From assembly GCA_963847705.1 (NCBI GenBank), contig CAWKBC010000030.1, positions 498,691 through 562,690 of the forward strand: DNA of 64,000 bases, given 5' to 3'. Made by a program: the position numbers and the translations under genes. The notes below the pieces were generated by a model, which was not told the DNA's origin, did not search any database, and saw nothing but the letters and a program-made list of their open reading frames with translations. Below are positions 18,943 through 26,599 of this stretch, in pieces; position 1 is the stretch's first letter; every line of letters starts with the position of its first letter. The DNA is from an uncultured Pseudomonadota bacterium (GTDB lineage: Bacteria > Myxococcota_A > Polyangia > Fen-1088).

Positions 18943-19407
18943 CTACGTCAGGGGCGCGGCCGCGGCCGAGGGGGCCTGCCCGCGCCGACGGGTCACCGCC
19001 TGCGTGGCGAGCATGCCGAGCGCCATCGACGAGACCGCCACGACCGGAGCGATACGCCCCGCGCCGAGCGCCACCAAAGCAGGGCCGGGGCAATACCCGG
19101 TCAGTCCCCAGCCGATGCCGAAGATCGCCGCTCCCGCCAGCAGCTGGGCGTCGATGCGCGTCGCGCGCGGCCAACCGAAGTCGCCGCCCAGGAAGGGATG
19201 CGCGCGGCGTTTGGCGGCACGAAAGGTCCAGTACCCGACCGCGATTCCCCCGCCCATCACGAACATCAGGCTGGGATCCCAGTTCCCCAGCACGTCGAGG
19301 AACGCCTGCACCTTGAGCGGATTGGTCATTCCGCCCAGCCCCAGCCCGAGGGCGAAGAGAAGACCGCAGAGCGCCGCGACGGCGTTCTTCTTGCTCGCGT
19401 TGCTCAC
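18943..19407 (-). CDS. YeeE/YedE-family sulfur transport membrane protein (second subunit)
   Basis: GMTNPLKVQAFLD, WDPSLMFVMGG, FGIGWGLTGYCPGP. Confidence 0.88.
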   Translation of the reverse strand: MSNASKKNAVAALCGLLFALGLGLGGMTNPLKVQAFLDVLGNWDPSLMFVMGGGIAVGYWTFRAAKRRAHPFLGGDFGWPRATRIDAQLLAGAAIFGIGWGLTGYCPGPALVALGAGRIAPVVAVSSMALGMLATQAVTRRRGQAPSAAAAPLT

Positions 19408-19823
19408 AGCCGGCCTCGCGTCACGGCCACGGTCAGCATCCCGGTCGCGACGAAGACCAGCGTCGCCACGATGGACCGGGACGACAGACGGCTGATCCCG
19501 CAGAGCCCGTGTCCGGAGGTGCACCCGTTGCCGAGGGTGGTGCCCACGCCGACCAGGAATCCACCGACGGCCATGGTGGCGAGCCCGGTCGAGCTGCCCG
19601 GGCCGAAGACCCCCGGCGAGCCGAGGCGCCAGAGCAGGCCGCCGACCACCAGTCCCCCCAGAAAATACAGGCGCCAAGAGAGCTCGGCGCCCCGCGCGCC
19701 AAAGCTCCGTCCGAGGATTCCCGCGATCCCCGCGATGCGCCCGTCGAAGAGGATCAGGAGCGAGATCGCGACGCCCAGCACCAACCCGCCGAGGGTCGAG
19801 CCAAGTGGTGTGAAGCCCATCAT
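19404..19823 (-). CDS. YeeE/YedE-family sulfur transport membrane protein (first subunit)
   Basis: GRIAGIAGI, GNGCTSGHGLCGISRLS. Confidence 0.88.
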   Translation of the reverse strand: MMGFTPLGSTLGGLVLGVAISLLILFDGRIAGIAGILGRSFGARGAELSWRLYFLGGLVVGGLLWRLGSPGVFGPGSSTGLATMAVGGFLVGVGTTLGNGCTSGHGLCGISRLSSRSIVATLVFVATGMLTVAVTRGRL

Positions 19824-19910: not shown

Positions 19911-20225
19911 CTAATCGCGGACGAGAGGAAGGCCGGCGTTCGCCCACCCGCGGGTGCCGCCGCTGAGGTTGTAGACGTTGGTGCGGCCTTCGGCCTCCGC
20001 GACCCTCGCCGCCGTCTGGCTGCGGACGCCAGCCGCGCAGACGAAGAGGATTCCGTCGCGCGGCAAGGTGTCCTTGGGCCTGGCCCTCAGCTCACCGAGA
20101 GGGACGAGGCGAGAGCCAGGGAGGTGTCCGCTCGACCACTCTCCAGGTTCCCGCACGTCGACCACGTCGAAGTCGCCATGCGCAATCAACTCCCGAGCCT
20201 GCTCCGGACCGATGGAGTGAATCAT
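19911..20225 (-). CDS. Single-domain rhodanese (sulfurtransferase)
   Basis: VDVREPGEWSSGHLPGS, CAAGVRS catalytic loop, LSGGTRGW. Confidence 0.9.
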   Translation of the reverse strand: MIHSIGPEQARELIAHGDFDVVDVREPGEWSSGHLPGSRLVPLGELRARPKDTLPRDGILFVCAAGVRSQTAARVAEAEGRTNVYNLSGGTRGWANAGLPLVRD

Positions 20226-20227
20226 GT

Positions 20228-20245
20228 TGTCTACTATAACGGATG
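20228..20245. promoter_or_regulatory. 18-bp palindromic operator, copy 1 (rhodanese promoter)
   Basis: Minus strand CATCCGTTATAGTAGACA, overlapping the TATAGT -10. Confidence 0.65.
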
Positions 20246-20325
20246 AAATGCTCGCATGCAAGACCATCCGTCGGTGCGGCCCCACGATCGCGGGCGGGCT
20301 GAGCTGGCAAGAGGGCCGGCGCGCG

Positions 20326-22222
20326 TCAGAGGCCCGGCACGCGGCCGGACTGGATGCGGAGCAGCGCGGCCACCAGCGCGTCGATGTCCTGGCAGGTGTT
20401 GTAGGGGGCCAGCGAGGCGCGGACCGTGCTCTCCAGGCCGAAGCGGCGCAGGATCGGTTGGGCGCAGTGGTGACCAGAGCGCACGGCGATCCCTTCCTGA
20501 TCGAGGGCCTTGCCGACGTCCTCGGTCCGCGCACCGTCGAGGACGAACGAGAGCACGCCGGCCTTTTCGGGCGCGGTCCCGATCAGGTGAAGCCCGGGGA
20601 CACGCGCCAGCTCTCCCGTCGCATACTCGAGCAGCTCGTGCTCGTAGGCGCCGATCCGCTCGCGGCCGATGGCGTTGACGTAGTCGAGCGCGGCGCCCAG
20701 GCCGACGGCGTCGGCGATGTTGCCGGTGCCCGCCTCGAACCGCAGGGGCGGCGCTTGATAGGTCGTCTTCTCGAACCGCACGTCGCTGATCATGTTCCCC
20801 CCACCTTGCCAGGGGGGCATGGCTTCCAGGACATCTGTCTTTCCGAACAGAGCCCCGATGCCGGTCGGCCCGAAGATCTTGTGGCCGGAGAAGCAGTAAA
20901 AGTCGCAGTCCAAGGCCTGGACGTCGACGGGCAGGTGCGAGACCGCCTGAGCTCCGTCGATCAAGACGCGCGCGCCATAGCGATGGGCGATCTCGATCAT
21001 CTGCTTGACCGGAACGATGGTCCCGAGCGCGTTCGAGACCTGCGAGACCGAGACCAGCCGCGTGCGCGGCCCCAGCAGCTTCTCGTACTCCTCGAGAATG
21101 ACCTGGCCCCGATCGTCGACCGGCGCCACCCGCAGGCGCGCGCCCGTCGCGGCGGTGAGCTGCTGCCAGGGGACGATGTTGGCGTGGTGCTCGAGCCAGG
21201 AGATCACGATCTCGTCCCCTTCGGCGACGTGGCGACGGCCCCAGCTCTGGGCCACGAGGTTGATCGCCTCCGTCGTTCCGCGCACGAAGACGATGTTCTT
21301 GGACGAAGGGGCGTTCAAGAAGCGTGCGGTCTTGTCCCGCGCAGACTCGTAGGCGTCGGTGGCGCGGGCCGCCAGCTCGTGCGCCGCGCGATGGACGTTG
21401 GAGTTCTCGTGCTCATAGAAGTACGAGAGGCGTTCGATGACCGCGCGCGGTTTCTGCGTGGTGGCCGCGTTGTCCAGCCAGACCAGCCGCCGCCCGTGGA
21501 CGCGCTCCTCCAGGATGGGGAAGTCGCGCTTGATGCTGAGGGGATTGAAGAATCCCGCCGGCGGCGGGGAGATCGGGGACCAGCTCGGGCTGGAACTCGC
21601 TGACGAGCGAGAGCCCAGGCGAGAGCTCCGGCGCCGTGGCCGGAACGGCGGTCGCGGGCACCGGCGTGGCGGGCGAAGCCGGGAACGCGGGCGACGTCGG
21701 GAACGCAGGCGCGGTGGACCACCCGGGCAAGGCGAGCGGTGCGGTCGACAGCGGCGAGGCGGGCGTCGCGGGCAGCGAGGGTGTCGCCGGCGAACCCGGC
21801 AGGGAAGGCGAACCCGGCAGGGGGGGCGAACCCGACGACGCAGGCGTAGCCGACGACGCAGGCGAACCCGGCAACGCAGGCGAACCCCACGACGCCGGCG
21901 AACCCGACGATGCAGGTGACGGGTGCCCCGCGATCTGGAGAAAATATGGCGTCGGTGACGCCGCGGCGGGCGGCGTCTCGACCAGTGCCAGGGGCGCCGA
22001 CCCCCCCAGGAAGTTGGCCATCGTCAACGGGAGCGTGCGAAGGTCGCTCTCGGTGGGCGGCGGGGCGACCGCCCAGAGGGGCGGCGTCGTTGCGGCGCCC
22101 GGCACCGGCGGCAGATGCCCCGCCGACCCGGGGGCCTGCGCAAACAGCTCCCCCGCCAGCCGGGTGATGGCAGCGGTCAGGTCGCCTTCCGGCAATCTGG
22201 CCGGTGGATCACTTGTACTCAT
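20326..22222 (-). CDS. Family 2A encapsulin cargo cysteine desulfurase (SufS-like) with N-terminal disordered cargo-loading domain; one +1 frameshift near 21566
   Basis: RDFPIL, LDNAATTQKP, FSGHKIFGPTGIG, VRSGHHCAQP in one frame; ITRLAGELF plus Pro/Ser/Ala-rich N-terminus in another frame, starting within the encapsulin 3' end. Confidence 0.85.
21789..21914. repeat. Seven imperfect tandem 18-bp repeats encoding SPASSG-like hexapeptides
   Basis: GGCGAACCCG(G/A)C... recurs every 18 bp. Confidence 0.8.
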
Positions 22223-23165
22223 GGTAGCTGCCGACCTCGACGTCTTCGAGCACGCCGAGCGCGTCGTCCGTCAGGACCGCCGCCGAGCAGTAGAGCGACA
22301 CCAGGTAAGAGGCCGCCCCCTTCTGGTCGATGCCCCGCAGGCGAACCGACAGGCTGGGGCTCACCTCTCCCGGCAGCCCGGGCTGGAACAGCCCGACGAC
22401 GCCGCGTTTCTTCTCACCGGTCCGGAGCAGGAGGATGCTGGTGGTCCCGCGGCCGTCCTTCTTGCCAGCGGCGCCGGCGTGCCCCGTGATGCCGACCTTG
22501 TCCGAGGGGATGATGGGGATTCCACGCCAGGTGATGAAGGGCGAGCCGAACAGCGACACCGTCGCCGGCGGAACGCCGCGACGGGTGCACTCCCGCCCGA
22601 ACGCCGCGATGGCCCTGGGGTGGGCCAGGAAGAACGCCGGCTCCTTCCAGACGCGGGTGATCAACTCGTCGAGATCATCCGGCGTCGGCGCACCGGCCCG
22701 CGTCGCCACCCGCGACGCCTTGCTGGCGTTGCTCAGCAGACCGTAGTTCGCGTTGTTGACCAGCTCGTGCTCCTGCCGCTCCTTCAACATCTCGATGAGG
22801 ACGCCGAGCTGTTCGCGCACCTGGTCCATCGGGCTGCGATAGAGATCGGAGATCCGCGTCTGCACGTCGATGGTGGTGGTGACCGTGCTGAGCGTGTACT
22901 CGCGCGGCTGCTCTTCGTAGTCGATGAAGGCCGTCGGCAGCTCGTCGCCATCACCGGGACTGCAGGCCAGCGCGATCCCCGAGTCGGTCGCCTCTTTGAC
23001 CTTGTTCACCCGGTAGGTGCCGGACTCGACCGGCACCCAGGGGAGAAGATTGACCAGCCACCGCGGCGTGACACCGATCCACTGGGGCGGTGTCTTGGTC
23101 GTGTTGGCGAGGTTGCGGGCGGCGGTTGCGCCCAGGGTGGGGTGAGATCTGTTGGCGTCGGGCAT
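22209..23165 (-). CDS. Family 2A encapsulin shell protein (SrpI-like)
   Basis: AARNLANTTKTPPQW..TPRWL..LPWVPVESGTYRVN, PTPDDLDELI, AHPRAIAAFGRECTRRGVPP. Confidence 0.93.
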   Translation of the reverse strand: MPDANRSHPTLGATAARNLANTTKTPPQWIGVTPRWLVNLLPWVPVESGTYRVNKVKEATDSGIALACSPGDGDELPTAFIDYEEQPREYTLSTVTTTIDVQTRISDLYRSPMDQVREQLGVLIEMLKERQEHELVNNANYGLLSNASKASRVATRAGAPTPDDLDELITRVWKEPAFFLAHPRAIAAFGRECTRRGVPPATVSLFGSPFITWRGIPIIPSDKVGITGHAGAAGKKDGRGTTSILLLRTGEKKRGVVGLFQPGLPGEVSPSLSVRLRGIDQKGAASYLVSLYCSAAVLTDDALGVLEDVEVGSYHEYK

Positions 23166-23327
23166 GTCCGTCTCTTTCTGTAATCTGATCCGTGATGCGC
23201 TGGGGCGAAGCTATCGGCGCGGCGGTCGGGGGTACAAGATCCAGTTGTTGGCCGGGGCGACCCCCCAGGCTTTCTCTCCGTCAACGCGGAGCGACTTCCG
23301 CAATCGTGGAAGTGGGGGTGGAGAGGG

Positions 23328-23939
23328 TCACCTGGCGCCCTCGACGTAGGTCATCACCAGATACATCACGGCCTCGGCAGCGCCGGGATTCCGATAGCGG
23401 TGGGGCACGTCGGCGCTGAACAGGATCGCGTCTCCGACCTCCAGGCGGTGAGCGACGTTGTCGACTTCGATCTCGACGGCGCCGGCCGTCACCACCAGGT
23501 TCTCGGTCGTTCCGGGGGGGTGAGGGGGCGCTTGCTCTTCGCCCGCGGACTTGAGCCGCAGCTCGTAGAACTCCGTCCGGTTGCGGCGTTCGTCGAAGGG
23601 AAACAGGGCGCGGGAGGTGAAGGTCCCGTCTTGATTGGACAGCAACTTCCCGGAGCGCGCAGGCAAGACGATCGCAGCGCTGTTGGTCCGATCGATGAGA
23701 CTGGAGAAGGGGACCTCCAGTGCCCGTGCGACCTTCCAGAGGACGTTGATGGTCGGCGCGCTCTGACCGAGCTCGACCTGGCTCAGCATCGCCCGGCTCA
23801 CCCCGGAGCGGCGTGCCAGTCTTTCCAGCGACAGGCCCCGTTTGCTGCGCAATCTCCGGAGGTTCGGACCGAGGGCCGGCAGAACCTCGTCGGCAGGTCT
23901 CGACTCCAAGGCGCCGCCCCCCTTCGTCCGCTGTGGCAT
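23328..23939 (-). CDS. XRE HTH plus cupin transcriptional regulator (SutR/PuuR-like)
   Basis: SLERLARRSGVSRAMLSQVELGQSAPTINVLWK; HPPGTTE; FSADVPHRYRN. Confidence 0.9.
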   Translation of the reverse strand: MPQRTKGGGALESRPADEVLPALGPNLRRLRSKRGLSLERLARRSGVSRAMLSQVELGQSAPTINVLWKVARALEVPFSSLIDRTNSAAIVLPARSGKLLSNQDGTFTSRALFPFDERRNRTEFYELRLKSAGEEQAPPHPPGTTENLVVTAGAVEIEVDNVAHRLEVGDAILFSADVPHRYRNPGAAEAVMYLVMTYVEGAR

Positions 23940-23952
23940 TAAAACGGACTAT

Positions 23953-23970
23953 TGTCCGTTATGATGGACG
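23953..23970. promoter_or_regulatory. 18-bp palindromic operator, copy 2 (upstream of XRE-encapsulin-desulfurase genes)
   Basis: TGTCCGTTATGATGGACG. Confidence 0.55.
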
Positions 23971-24010
23971 AGTCAAGCGCGCTGTGCGCGTCCGCGGCCC
24001 AGACCGATCG

Positions 24011-24631
24011 CTACCGTCCGTAGACGATGACGTTGTGGTAACGGGCCTCCGAGCCGCCGGAGTTCTCGTAGACGTGGGGCTTGTTGGCGTCGAACACCAC
24101 CGAGTCTCCGGGGCCCAGCTCGTCGCTGTGATCTCCGACGGTCATTCGCATCGACCCGCTCAGCACCACCACGATCTCGCGTGTTCCCGGCCCGTGCGGC
24201 TCGGAGACGTGGCGCGCGCGGGCGGCCAGCCGGAGCTCGTACATCTCGATCTGGGGGATTCCCGAGGCGGGCATGAGCGGTCGGCTGTCGAACTTCCCGT
24301 CGAGCGACCGCAGAAGCTGGGCCTCTCCGCGTCTCAGGACCGACAGTCCCGTGCGCGCCTCGCCGATCAGGTCGGAGAACGTGACGCCCAGGCCGGAGGC
24401 GATCTTCCAGAGCACCCCGATCGTCGGATTGGTCTTCCGCGTCTCGATCTGGGAAAGGGCCGCCCGGCTGACGCCGGTGAGCTGCGCCAGCTGGTCGAGG
24501 GACATCTCGCGGCGCTTCCGCTGCTCGCGCAGGTGATCCGCGACGCGACCGGCCAGCTCCGCGGCCCCGATCTCGTCGCCCGAGGGGATGGGCGCACCTC
24601 GAAGACCAGCCGCCGCCTTTTTCCTGGGCAT
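24011..24631 (-). CDS. Second XRE HTH plus cupin transcriptional regulator
   Basis: SLDQLAQLTGVSRAALSQIETRKTNPTIGVLWK; HGPGTRE; FDANKPHVYEN. Confidence 0.9.
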   Translation of the reverse strand: MPRKKAAAGLRGAPIPSGDEIGAAELAGRVADHLREQRKRREMSLDQLAQLTGVSRAALSQIETRKTNPTIGVLWKIASGLGVTFSDLIGEARTGLSVLRRGEAQLLRSLDGKFDSRPLMPASGIPQIEMYELRLAARARHVSEPHGPGTREIVVVLSGSMRMTVGDHSDELGPGDSVVFDANKPHVYENSGGSEARYHNVIVYGR

Positions 24632-24757
24632 GGCGGGACGGTATCACGCGATGGCCTGGTCCAATATGGGCAGGGATGTCCGCGGCCCAAGGGAGAGGGC
24701 TCCAGGGACTCCTGCGGGGCAGCGGCCCGGCCCGGCCCGTCTCGCGTTGTAAACTGA

Positions 24758-24775
24758 AGTCCCGTATAGTAGACA
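24758..24775. promoter_or_regulatory. 18-bp palindromic operator, copy 3 (abuts cysE ATG)
   Basis: AGTCCCGTATAGTAGACA followed directly by ATG. Confidence 0.65.
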
Positions 24776-25735
24776 ATGGCCACCATGCTGCGCACAGCCG
24801 ATTCGCAGGCCGCCGCGTTCGACTCTTTTGCGGACGTCGTCGATGACATCTGCGCCGCCAACGAAGATCTCCTGCGCGGCCGTCGCAAGCAGCGGGGACG
24901 TCACGCGCTGCCCTCCCGGGCCGCTGTGGCCGCGGTGGTCGACGATCTGCGGTCGGTGCTGTTTCCCGGGCACTTCGGCGCGACCGACCTGGCGCCGACC
25001 AGCATCCGCTACTACGTGGGCGCGCAGCTCGACAAATTGCAGGTCGCGCTCACCGAGCAGGTGCGCCGCGGGCTCTCCCTGGTCTGCGATCATGACGACG
25101 TCACCGGCGCGGGCGAATGCCGCCGGTGCGACCAGGAGGCCTCCGACGCCACGGAGGCTCTGGTCATTCATCTTCCGACGATCCGGAGAATGCTGGAGAC
25201 CGACCTCAAGGCGGCGTTCGCCAGCGATCCCGCGGCCACCTTCCTGGACGAGACGCTCTATTGCTACCCGGGGGTCCTGGCGATCACGCAGCACCGGATC
25301 GCGCACGAGCTCTACAGTCTCTCGGTCCCCCTGATCCCGCGCATCATCTCCGAGCTGGCGCACGCGGCCACCGGGATCGACATTCACCCGGGCGCCAAGA
25401 TCGGACCGTACTTCTTCATCGATCACGGGACCGGGGTGGTCATCGGCGAGACCTGCGAGATCGGCGCGCGGGTTCGCCTCTATCAGGGGGTGACCTTGGG
25501 CGCGCGCGGATTTCCGATCGATCCGGACGGTCAACTGTTCAAGGGCCCGCGACACCCGATCATCGGGGACGACGTCGTCGTCTACGCGGGCGCCACGGTG
25601 CTTGGCCGCGTGACGATCGGGGAGGGTGCCGTCATCGGGGGGAACGTCTGGCTCACCCGGGACGTGCCGCCCGGCGGCCGCGTCACCCAGGCCCGCCTTC
25701 AGCAGGACACCTTCGAGGGCGGCTCGGGGATCTAG
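24776..25735 (+). CDS. cysE: Serine O-acetyltransferase (EpsC/SrpH type)
   Basis: DPAA, CYPG, TGIDIHPGAKIG, FIDHGTGVVIGET, RHPIIGDDV. Confidence 0.92.
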   Translation: MATMLRTADSQAAAFDSFADVVDDICAANEDLLRGRRKQRGRHALPSRAAVAAVVDDLRSVLFPGHFGATDLAPTSIRYYVGAQLDKLQVALTEQVRRGLSLVCDHDDVTGAGECRRCDQEASDATEALVIHLPTIRRMLETDLKAAFASDPAATFLDETLYCYPGVLAITQHRIAHELYSLSVPLIPRIISELAHAATGIDIHPGAKIGPYFFIDHGTGVVIGETCEIGARVRLYQGVTLGARGFPIDPDGQLFKGPRHPIIGDDVVVYAGATVLGRVTIGEGAVIGGNVWLTRDVPPGGRVTQARLQQDTFEGGSGI

Positions 25736-25754
25736 CCTCTTGCGCCGGCACCGC

Positions 25755-25772
25755 TGTCTAGTATAGTAGACA
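25755..25772. promoter_or_regulatory. 18-bp palindromic operator, copy 4, within a sigma70-like promoter for prx
   Basis: TGTCTAGTATAGTAGACA; TTGCGC at 25740 lies 16 nt before TATAGT. Confidence 0.7.
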
Positions 25773-25960: not shown

Positions 25961-26599
25961 ATGGCTCTTCACATCGGAAGCATCGCGCCCGACTTCGAGC
26001 AGGATTCGACGGAGGGAAAAATCAAGCTCCACCAGTGGCTGGGAGACAGCTGGGGCGTTCTCTTCTCCCATCCGGCCGACTTCACCCCCGTCTGCACCAC
26101 CGAGCTCGGCCGGGTGGCCAAGCTGAAACCGGAGTTCGACAGGCGAAAAACCAAGGTGATCGCGCTGTCGGTCGATACGGGCGCCTCGCACAAGAACTGG
26201 ATCCGCGACATCGAGGAGACGCAGGCGACCAGGATCAACTTTCCGATCCTCGCCGACGCGGATCGCAAGGTCTCCACGCTCTACGACATGATCCATCCGG
26301 AGGCGAACGACACCCTGACGGTGCGCTCGGTCTTCATCATCGACCCCAAGAAGAAGATCCGTCTCATCATCACCTATCCCGCCAGCACGGGCCGGAACTT
26401 CGACGAGATCCTGCGGGTCATCGATTCGCTGCAGCTCACCGAGTATCACTCGGTCGCCACCCCCGTCGACTGGAAGAACGGCGACGACGTGGTGATCGTC
26501 CCATCGCTCAAGGATCCGGACGTCCTCCGGCAGAGGTTTCCCAAGGGCTGGCGGGAGATCAAGCCGTACCTCCGCCTGACCCCGCAACCGGATCGGTAG
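25961..26599 (+). CDS. 1-Cys peroxiredoxin (Prx6)
   Basis: FSHPADFTPVCTTELG, YPASTGRNFDEILR; AGGAGG RBS. Confidence 0.95.
   Translation: MALHIGSIAPDFEQDSTEGKIKLHQWLGDSWGVLFSHPADFTPVCTTELGRVAKLKPEFDRRKTKVIALSVDTGASHKNWIRDIEETQATRINFPILADADRKVSTLYDMIHPEANDTLTVRSVFIIDPKKKIRLIITYPASTGRNFDEILRVIDSLQLTEYHSVATPVDWKNGDDVVIVPSLKDPDVLRQRFPKGWREIKPYLRLTPQPDR

Follow-up and report, generated by a model that had tools for sequence, protein, structure and literature searches.

What controls a Family 2A encapsulin locus, and does its control reach beyond the compartment itself? We addressed this question in a 64,000-nucleotide stretch (the window) from the genome of an uncultured Myxococcota bacterium (6.1 Mb, 69% G+C, 84.7% complete), in which the shell gene and its cargo cysteine desulfurase gene are accompanied by two adjacent genes for XRE-cupin regulators, here called XRE1 and XRE2. 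An initial annotation of the window had described four copies of an 18-bp palindromic operator as a regulon of this locus. We propose, with a probability of about 0.68, that the four sites are members of a SutR-like 18-bp box that recurs at sulfur-acquisition genes, and that the two XRE-cupins are the likely operator readers, with labor divided between them. In what follows, G000 is the genome under study, other G numbers denote further genomes, and L numbers denote fetched loci.

The 18-bp box and the genes beside it

All four 18-mers were found at the positions and on the strands originally reported (Table 1), and TATAGTAGACA is indeed common to three of them. Their palindromy was overdrawn: the sites are partly symmetric, with 4, 6, 5, and 8 of 9 pairs matched in sites 1-4. 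With up to 3 mismatches allowed, the window contained 4 matches to the initial consensus, located at 3 places, compared with 0.01 expected from 100 shuffles, and site 2, which needs more than 3 mismatches, was not retrieved. A refined matrix trained on 15 genome sites scored the four sites at 22.0-31.9 bits. The next-best window position reached only 7.3 bits, in keeping with the claim that no copies lie elsewhere in the window, but three related boxes are present (the encapsulin-upstream pair and the partner of site 2 in Table 1).

A blind genome scan with a symmetric matrix built from the four sites alone (threshold 14.7 bits) returned 16 matches, 12 of them outside the window. Twelve positions scored at least 19 bits, whereas 25 column-permuted matrices gave 0-8; this control no longer discriminates at 15.5 bits (15 versus 1-66). 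Sulfur-family genes lie directly downstream of 8 of the 12 outside matches (Table 1). The ssu island among them holds ssuA-like genes, ssuCB, an ssuD-like gene, ssuE, a D-cysteate sulfo-lyase-like gene, and a sigma-54 activator fused to SsuA. Two more outside matches precede DUF2325 and Macro-domain genes, whose orthologues in kin also have the box; of the remaining two, one lies behind sbp and one (C29:1208) resembles coding sequence. The genome scan, a check that the initial annotation had suggested, thus found mostly sulfur promoters, and the box marks a genome-wide sulfur regulon instead of one local to the encapsulin locus.

These data bear directly on the original interpretation, in which an XRE1/XRE2 heterodimer represses the encapsulin locus only, through the four sites. 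Four strong sites do lie within 5.5 kb, the regulator genes are adjacent, a heterodimer model passes (see below), and XRE-cupins are mostly local in the available part of PMC7901475; yet other parts of the genome have stronger sites at sulfur genes, genomes in which we found neither XRE1 nor encapsulin still have the box and XRE2, and none of sites 1-4 is directly upstream of the encapsulin gene. We consider this version extremely unlikely. What survives of it is an XRE-cupin operator tied to sulfur, with repressor-like placement; the local regulon does not.

In related genomes, YGTCYNNYATRNNRGACR (box YGTCY-N8-RGACR) was present in 19 of 26 members of the genus, with 85 matches compared with 4 for the reversed control. 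We fetched 40 regions (39 from kin), picked among the listed matches for an AT-rich center. A Pfam scan of 68 neighboring proteins identified cysD, cysH, sir, sbp, sulP, ssuC, ASST, sulfatase, yeeE, and DsrE, together with 2-thiouracil desulfurase, porin O/P, Prx, DUF2325, and many unannotated genes. Sulfur genes therefore recur beside the box in kin, where the initial annotation had advised a scan of orthologous loci. Across 22 genomes, 108 sites give the consensus YGTCTAYTATARTAGACR. The gap between the box and a following ATG is 1-2 nt in 43 cases, compared with 1-7 cases at each other offset, among 93 sites outside G000 counted in both directions, many of which are homologous promoters. 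The TATANT core consequently lies 7-8 nt ahead of the start codon, and we infer that boxes with this core are leaderless promoters covered by an operator. A class-wide TGTCT regulon was considered and rejected: the strict pattern was found in 30 of 251 class genomes and was concentrated in the organism's own family (14 of 42).

Within the window, site 1 ends 2 nt from the rhodanese ATG and is predicted to sit on a leaderless rhodanese promoter; a site before rhodanese is also present in kin loci from G001, G008, G024, G012, G006, G010, G011, and G015. Site 2 falls between the -35 and -10 of a promoter-like element for XRE1. Site 3 lies immediately before cysE, whose start kept in G001 is the second ATG (24785), and 127 nt before XRE2. 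Site 4 is 188 nt upstream of the peroxiredoxin gene, and a site before Prx was also found in G001, G015, and G151. Overlap of three sites with a -10, as initially proposed, is suggested by the central TATAGT, but a sigma-70 scan revealed one full promoter-like site only, that of XRE1, and found no full sigma-70 promoter at sites 1, 3, and 4. The geometry of sites 1-4 is compatible with a promoter-occluding repressor; that of the pair upstream of the encapsulin gene is not.

Several features of the regulon stand out as observations in their own right. The best site of the genome, a perfect palindrome (C1:102347; L001:14348), lies just past the stop codon of sbp, and on that strand no gene is called beyond it; the site may belong to a lost gene, a small open reading frame (ORF), or an RNA. 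The sigma-54 activator with the SsuA-type sulfonate-binding domain (701 aa; L004:7845-9947, C11) lies behind a regulon site. The Macro-domain gene (C30:236974-237645; L027, L075, L091) has the box in four genomes and is twice divergent from cysD-type genes. DUF2325 (C1:95080-95361; L074, L092, L098, L103, L104, L106, L111) is a recurring member, with the box 1-2 nt ahead of the ATG in most kin loci. A beta-carbonic-anhydrase-like gene heads the metY-metA operon (L001:7580-10380), and the box is there in several kin; hydrolysis of carbonyl sulfide as a sulfur source is a possible lead for this gene. Finally, three genes turn up repeatedly in kin, either behind the box or ahead of encapsulin (L040:2936-5958; L201, L202): one for a flavoprotein, one for a small 4Fe-4S protein, and one for a HEAT-repeat protein.

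The tandem TCCG box upstream of the encapsulin gene

A de novo palindrome search of the regions upstream of 22 encapsulin genes (24 loci less 2 dropped as cut or broken) yielded TCCG-N6-CGGA, with an information of 13.3 compared with 7.5-8.3 in five shuffles. This box reached at least 15 bits in 16 of the 17 XRE1-bearing genomes that could be evaluated and in none of 4 genomes without XRE1, 3 of which have the shell inside an operon, alone able to explain the absence. In 12 of the 16 strong-box loci the second-best position was 20 or 21 bp off; in the four strong-box loci of one genus there was a half partner only. A tandem scan of the 6.1 Mb genome gave two matches. One, the encapsulin-upstream pair, had been used for training; the other, at the XRE1 promoter (23933-23970), had not. 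Site 2 is therefore half of a pair.

Outside the training set, 36 of 73 metagenomic XRE1-clade genes had an upstream match to the TCCG matrix (7 of 80 loci were dropped as short or duplicate), and the control gave 0 matches. Seven of 12 metagenomic shell loci, including several close kin, had tandem scores above 20, and the scores ranged from 16.6 to 23.8 in two Competibacteraceae, an Acidobacteriota bin, and Azospirillum. Five encapsulin loci without a nearby XRE-cupin scored -2.8 to -0.2. In the pANL, Ralstonia, Variovorax, Paraburkholderia, and Aliarcobacter encapsulin loci, we found no XRE-cupin within 15-19 kb and no tandem box. On a Methylosinus plasmid (L118:6479-6775), a Family 2A encapsulin gene follows immediately after a truncated XRE1-like cupin gene, and the tandem score is low. 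Across 89 genomes, XRE1 and encapsulin occurred together in 19, encapsulin alone in 4, XRE1 alone in 2, and neither in 64; at an E value of 1e-42, XRE1 was present in at least 7 of 201 phylum genomes when the best 15 candidates per genome were scored.

Downstream of the pair in kin there is a promoter-like element that is weak, often TTGCGN-N18-TANNNT, with the same spacing as in the window. With '-10' hexamers picked by pattern and the start inferred, the distance from box to '-10' fell into two groups separated by one helical turn, 63 nt (8 loci) and 50-52 nt (4 loci). In the window the boxes center at about -82.5 and -102.5, positions typical of class I activators, as known from CRP.

XRE1 and XRE2 as candidate readers

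Both regulators pass the Pfam cut-offs for PF01381 and PF07883. They are 39% identical and fall into separate clades in a quick tree. A palindrome beside its own gene is a hallmark of an XRE-cupin operator, and sites 2 and 3 are predicted to be of this kind. XRE2-like genes were found in 35 of 42 family genomes. Among 28 XRE2 orthologues, 7 had a site of at least 13 bits within 300 nt upstream (control 0; background 22 of 4689 genes) and 5 had a site just downstream, ahead of genes such as metY. Four family genomes that are 96-100% complete and gave no XRE match had 0 sites. In other families, an XRE-cupin gene lies inside cysH-cysG-sir or cysG/sir clusters bearing sites (L056, G184). Two further genes of this type were seen in passing: an XRE2 paralogue, 89% identical, with a weak upstream site and non-sulfur neighbors (C25:60261-60878, L113), and a third XRE-cupin clade, which in three families is divergently oriented to an SDR gene and a QueA-like gene (L005:14215-16850; L156, L157), at whose loci no box was found.

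The His/Glu/His center of the cupin is kept (H146, E152, and H186 in 26 of 26; H140, E146, and H180 in 18-19 of 19), and the XRE1 and XRE2 cupins differ in residues near it. The best Protein Data Bank match, by sequence (E 8e-24) and by fold, was 1Y9Q, a Vibrio cholerae HTH_3 regulator with 31-34% identity to the two XREs. Its cupin binds D-methionine according to the available part of PMC7901475. For XRE2, a single-sequence fold was uninformative (predicted local distance difference test, pLDDT, 42.6) and an alignment-based fold (pLDDT 75.9) supports family assignment only. An XRE1/XRE2 heterodimer model scored 0.77 compared with 0.01 for the best control, a mark that 116 of 157 solved pairs and 2 of 215 mismatched ones attain; its runs share at least 92% of contacts, with partner pLDDT of at least 77. 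Paralogues of a dimeric family can pass such a test, and the score can reflect likeness to family dimers. The heterodimer raised in the initial annotation is thus structurally compatible in the model, but an obligate pair is unlikely because XRE1 is patchily distributed (21 of 89 genomes, versus 35 of 42 for XRE2-like genes).

Could a different protein read the box, with the XRE genes as mere regulon members? An Rrf2/CymR-like, MarR, CRP-family, or LysR factor would fit the Rrf2 gene found downstream of sites in G010 and G012 and, in G000, at the head of a sulfate-uptake operon, and it would fit G179, which has 8 similar palindromes and no close XRE-cupin, mostly within called genes or beside a MarR-like ORF. 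Speaking against such a factor, three Rrf2 loci of G000 have no site (best score 1.7 bits or less), the third XRE-cupin, of another clade, has none either, the box resembles DNA under a SutR binding peak (see below), and a tblastn search of the 84.7% complete genome with a Variovorax CysB-family fragment found no CysB orthologue, the best LysR matches being 27.6-30.4% identical. We therefore rejected Rrf2 and CysB as readers, set aside a G179 regulon without XRE, and regard this explanation as very unlikely. The twin TCTCGTATACGAGA palindromes of G179 (L161:1474-1518), between the MarR-like ORF and a divergent gene, are probably a separate operator.

A closer competitor keeps the regulon and drops the division of labor: XRE1, XRE2, and mixed dimers would bind all boxes alike and only repress, and the encapsulin pair would serve for looping, as a roadblock, or to block an unmapped upstream promoter. 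The recognition helices are nearly identical (SRAMLSQ and SRAALSQ), hybrid sites are frequent (22 of 108), the heterodimer model passes, with the reservation given above, and characterized XRE-cupins repress in the available part of PMC7901475. This account is harder to square with the CC-type sites (11 of 75 in XRE1-bearing genomes versus 1 of 33 in other genomes), with a TCCG pair that tracks XRE1, and with a phase-keeping spacing to a weak promoter, which suits activation better. We judge it unlikely.

Several observations weigh against the divided regulon that we favor. As the recognition helices are so alike, the specificities of XRE1 and XRE2 may overlap widely. G454 has XRE1 and no TCCG box, 5 of 12 metagenomic encapsulin loci have one strong box only, and both the operon-internal shells of three box-negative genomes and the pattern-picked '-10' hexamers soften the comparisons above. 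No upstream site was found for 21 of 28 XRE2 orthologues; G203, G213, and G256 have XRE2 and 0 strict-pattern matches, and G009 and G023 (74% and 80% complete) and G127 have two matches each without an XRE match. In the 3 of 58 records inspected, plasmid-borne XRE1-like genes of Rhizobium, Mesorhizobium, and Microvirga had no annotated sulfur neighbors. Kin genomes are not independent, and Fisher values overstate the associations. The P. aeruginosa XRE-cupins are all repressors in the available part of PMC7901475, which by analogy would argue against activation. In G000, the cysDN, cysH, cysG-sir-cysA-Rrf2-cysK, and Rrf2-porin-sbp-cysTW operons have no site. Because these core cys/sir operons lack the box, the regulon does not cover all sulfur assimilation; because the Rrf2-containing core sulfate uptake and reduction operons (C45:8878-15556, C8:97754-102440) are among the genes without it, a second regulatory layer is suggested for them.

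In the divided regulon as we picture it, XRE-cupin dimers would very likely bind the boxes. Boxes that cover the -10 and end 1-2 nt before the ATG would block RNA polymerase, and XRE2, found family-wide and preferring TGTCT-N8-AGACA, would very probably repress sbp, ssu, sulfatase, metY, yeeE, Prx, cysE, and rhodanese in this way until sulfur is short. XRE1, linked to encapsulin, would probably prefer TCCG-N6-CGGA, bind pairs 20-21 bp apart, and repress its own promoter. There is a slightly better than even chance that the pair at about -82.5/-102.5 would be a class-I-type activation site for the enc-desulfurase transcript, and XRE1 would then probably be an encapsulin-linked regulator that activates. 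Hybrid sites 1 and 3 may be readable by either protein or by a facultative heterodimer. The signal is fairly likely to be a sulfur amino acid or precursor at the His/Glu/His cupin center, a proposal made plausible by the D-methionine described for the nearest structure, 1Y9Q.

The encapsulin locus and known sulfur regulators

On the minus strand the locus runs yeeE/DUF6691, rhodanese, frameshifted desulfurase, Family 2A shell, XRE1, and XRE2; on the plus strand it has cysE followed by a 1-Cys peroxiredoxin gene (Table 1). The encap_f2a shell and the f2_encap_cargo1 desulfurase both score above cut-off, as expected of a Family 2A system. The desulfurase is split near 21560-21575, close to a G run at about 21566, into pieces at 21413-22222 and 20326-21573; the break separates a low-complexity loading region, the 269-aa 5' part, from the catalytic domain in a different frame. 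A programmed frameshift is unlikely, with similar indels in other genes of the G000 assembly and of G001, and this one is probably a long-read or assembly indel. Four DNA sequencing runs in which the organism has a small share yielded only pieces from relatives, and no habitat is claimed for it.

Table 1 Features of the encapsulin locus and box sites elsewhere in G000
Feature	Position	Strand	Basis or remark
YeeE/YedE-type (Sulf_transp) gene and DUF6691 gene	18943..19823	-	Profile match
Rhodanese	19911..20225	-	PF00581
Site 1, predicted operator; hybrid TCCG/TAGA halves, central TATAGT	20228..20245	-	Sequence match
Cargo cysteine desulfurase, frameshift-split	20326..22222	-	NF041166, 837 bits (cut-off 800), on 3' part
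Family 2A encapsulin shell	22209..23165	-	NF041162, 486 bits (cut-off 380)
Promoter-like element TTGTAC-N18-TAGCTT	23208..23237	-	Inferred; 42 nt before encapsulin ATG
Downstream box of TCCG-N6-CGGA pair	23275..23292	-	Center about -82.5 from inferred start
Upstream box of TCCG-N6-CGGA pair	23295..23312	-	Center about -102.5 from inferred start
XRE1, HTH_3 + Cupin_2, 203 aa	23328..23939	-	Pfam
Partner box of site 2, weaker	23933..23950	.	20 bp from site 2; covers XRE1 start; missed initially
Sigma-70-like XRE1 promoter TTGACT-N17-AATAGT	23948..23976	-	Sigma-70 scan: 1 found, 0.4 expected in shuffles
Site 2, predicted operator; TCCG-type	23953..23970	.	Sequence match; kept in G001
XRE2, HTH_3 + Cupin_2, 206 aa	24011..24631	-	Pfam
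Site 3, predicted operator; hybrid, central TATAGT	24758..24775	+	Sequence match; kept in G001
Serine O-acetyltransferase (CysE/EpsC)	24776..25735	+	Profile match
Site 4, predicted operator; TGTCT-type	25755..25772	+	Sequence match
1-Cys peroxiredoxin	25961..26599	+	Profile match
One box site before carbonic-anhydrase-like/metY/metA operon	Outside window		Matrix match
Two box sites before two divergent sulfate-binding protein genes (sbp)	Outside window		Matrix match
One box site before arylsulfotransferase gene	Outside window		Matrix match
Four box sites at promoters of ssu island	Outside window		Matrix match

Among characterized regulators, Escherichia coli SutR (YdcN, b1434), which the initial annotation had named, proved the right family lead. 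It shares the HTH_3 plus cupin architecture, 35% identity to both XREs, and a similar helix 3, and at its own promoter has a box of the same 18-bp length and TGT...TATA...ACA architecture. In the 8 kb around sutR, the top site was TGTCCGTTATAACGCACA in the ydcO-sutR spacer, a score reached by 1 of 60 shuffles. Binding peaks from chromatin immunoprecipitation with exonuclease digestion (ChIP-exo) were placed with what we take to be a 1976-bp offset between E. coli genome versions, for which ycj genes served as a rough check. Among 27 YdcN peaks taken from Dataset S4 of PMC8464067, the strongest has a signal-to-noise ratio of 1345 (others at most 20) and centers on a neighboring palindrome, CGTGCGTTATAGCGTACA, which is box-like. 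The available part of PMC5934670 lists SutR with a ydcO/ydcN site from systematic evolution of ligands by exponential enrichment and with cysE in its regulon. The differences are several. SutR has G at position 4 where this box has C (positions 4/15); it adjoins a ydcO-type transporter gene, whereas XRE1 and XRE2 adjoin encapsulin and cysE; and in the quick tree it forms a long branch within an open region and is not a clear orthologue of XRE1 or XRE2. Unlike the SutR system, this one has two clades of paralogues, some 15 sites that lie at sbp, ssu, sulfatase, and metY genes, a tandem upstream variant, and no CysB orthologue detected in the search of G000 described above.

The Pseudomonas aeruginosa XRE-cupins PauR, PsdR, ErfA, PA0535, PA1359, PA1884, and PA4987 resemble the present pair in having core-promoter palindromic operators, a site beside their own gene, and a predicted ligand-sensing cupin; they differ in running polyamine, dipeptide, and other local modules, with only PauR dispersed (12 places), and in the available part of PMC7901475 none is an activator, none is shown for a sulfur regulon, and PA2312 gave no data. 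Global sulfur regulators include CysB/Cbl (LysR), CymR (Rrf2), and cyanobacterial CysR. Their regulons have like content (sulfate and sulfonate uptake, desulfonation, cysteine and homocysteine synthesis), and their protein families and boxes differ from the XRE-cupin system. By analogy, the predicted system would combine the action of a one-component regulator of the SutR/PauR type with a gene set like that of a CysB or CymR regulon.

The Family 2A operons of Synechococcus elongatus (SrpI) and Acinetobacter baumannii 118362 share shell, desulfurase, rhodanese, and serine acetyltransferase with our locus. In the available parts of PMC8049743 and PMC10836720, cysteine desulfurase encapsulin operons of this family are induced by sulfur starvation, and no operator or dedicated regulator is named. 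These accounts bear on a bolder proposal, in which one sulfur signal would act through two paralogues with opposite control. XRE1 would activate shell and desulfurase when cysteine is plentiful, operators on the leaderless rhodanese promoter and the scavenging genes would shut remobilization and uptake until starvation, and the XRE1/tandem-box module would have moved with Family 2A encapsulins among Myxococcota, Alpha- and Gammaproteobacteria, and Acidobacteriota. Because the known operons rise under starvation in those same parts of the two sources, we favor activation in starvation over this fill-and-empty scheme, which we hold to be decidedly doubtful.

A search of the full-text literature by title and abstract, with subscription papers and RegPrecise outside its scope, found no operator for Family 2A encapsulins and no Myxococcota sulfur regulon, and the element described here is a candidate for the first control element of Family 2A encapsulins. 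The box proved broader than initially described, and a second, encapsulin-specific box has been added to it. Together they offer a candidate regulator and operator for the sulfur-storage encapsulins of Family 2A. They also suggest a candidate regulon for sulfur starvation in a family of uncultured Myxococcota, in whose representative G000 no CysB orthologue was found. Membership in this regulon would point DUF2325, the Macro-domain protein, and the beta-carbonic-anhydrase-like gene toward sulfur starvation. XRE-cupins have been described as local repressors, and a dispersed sulfur regulon with paralogue-specific boxes and possible activation would widen that view. Because the module is present in cultured Azospirillum, the timing with which the compartment is filled and emptied is directly testable.

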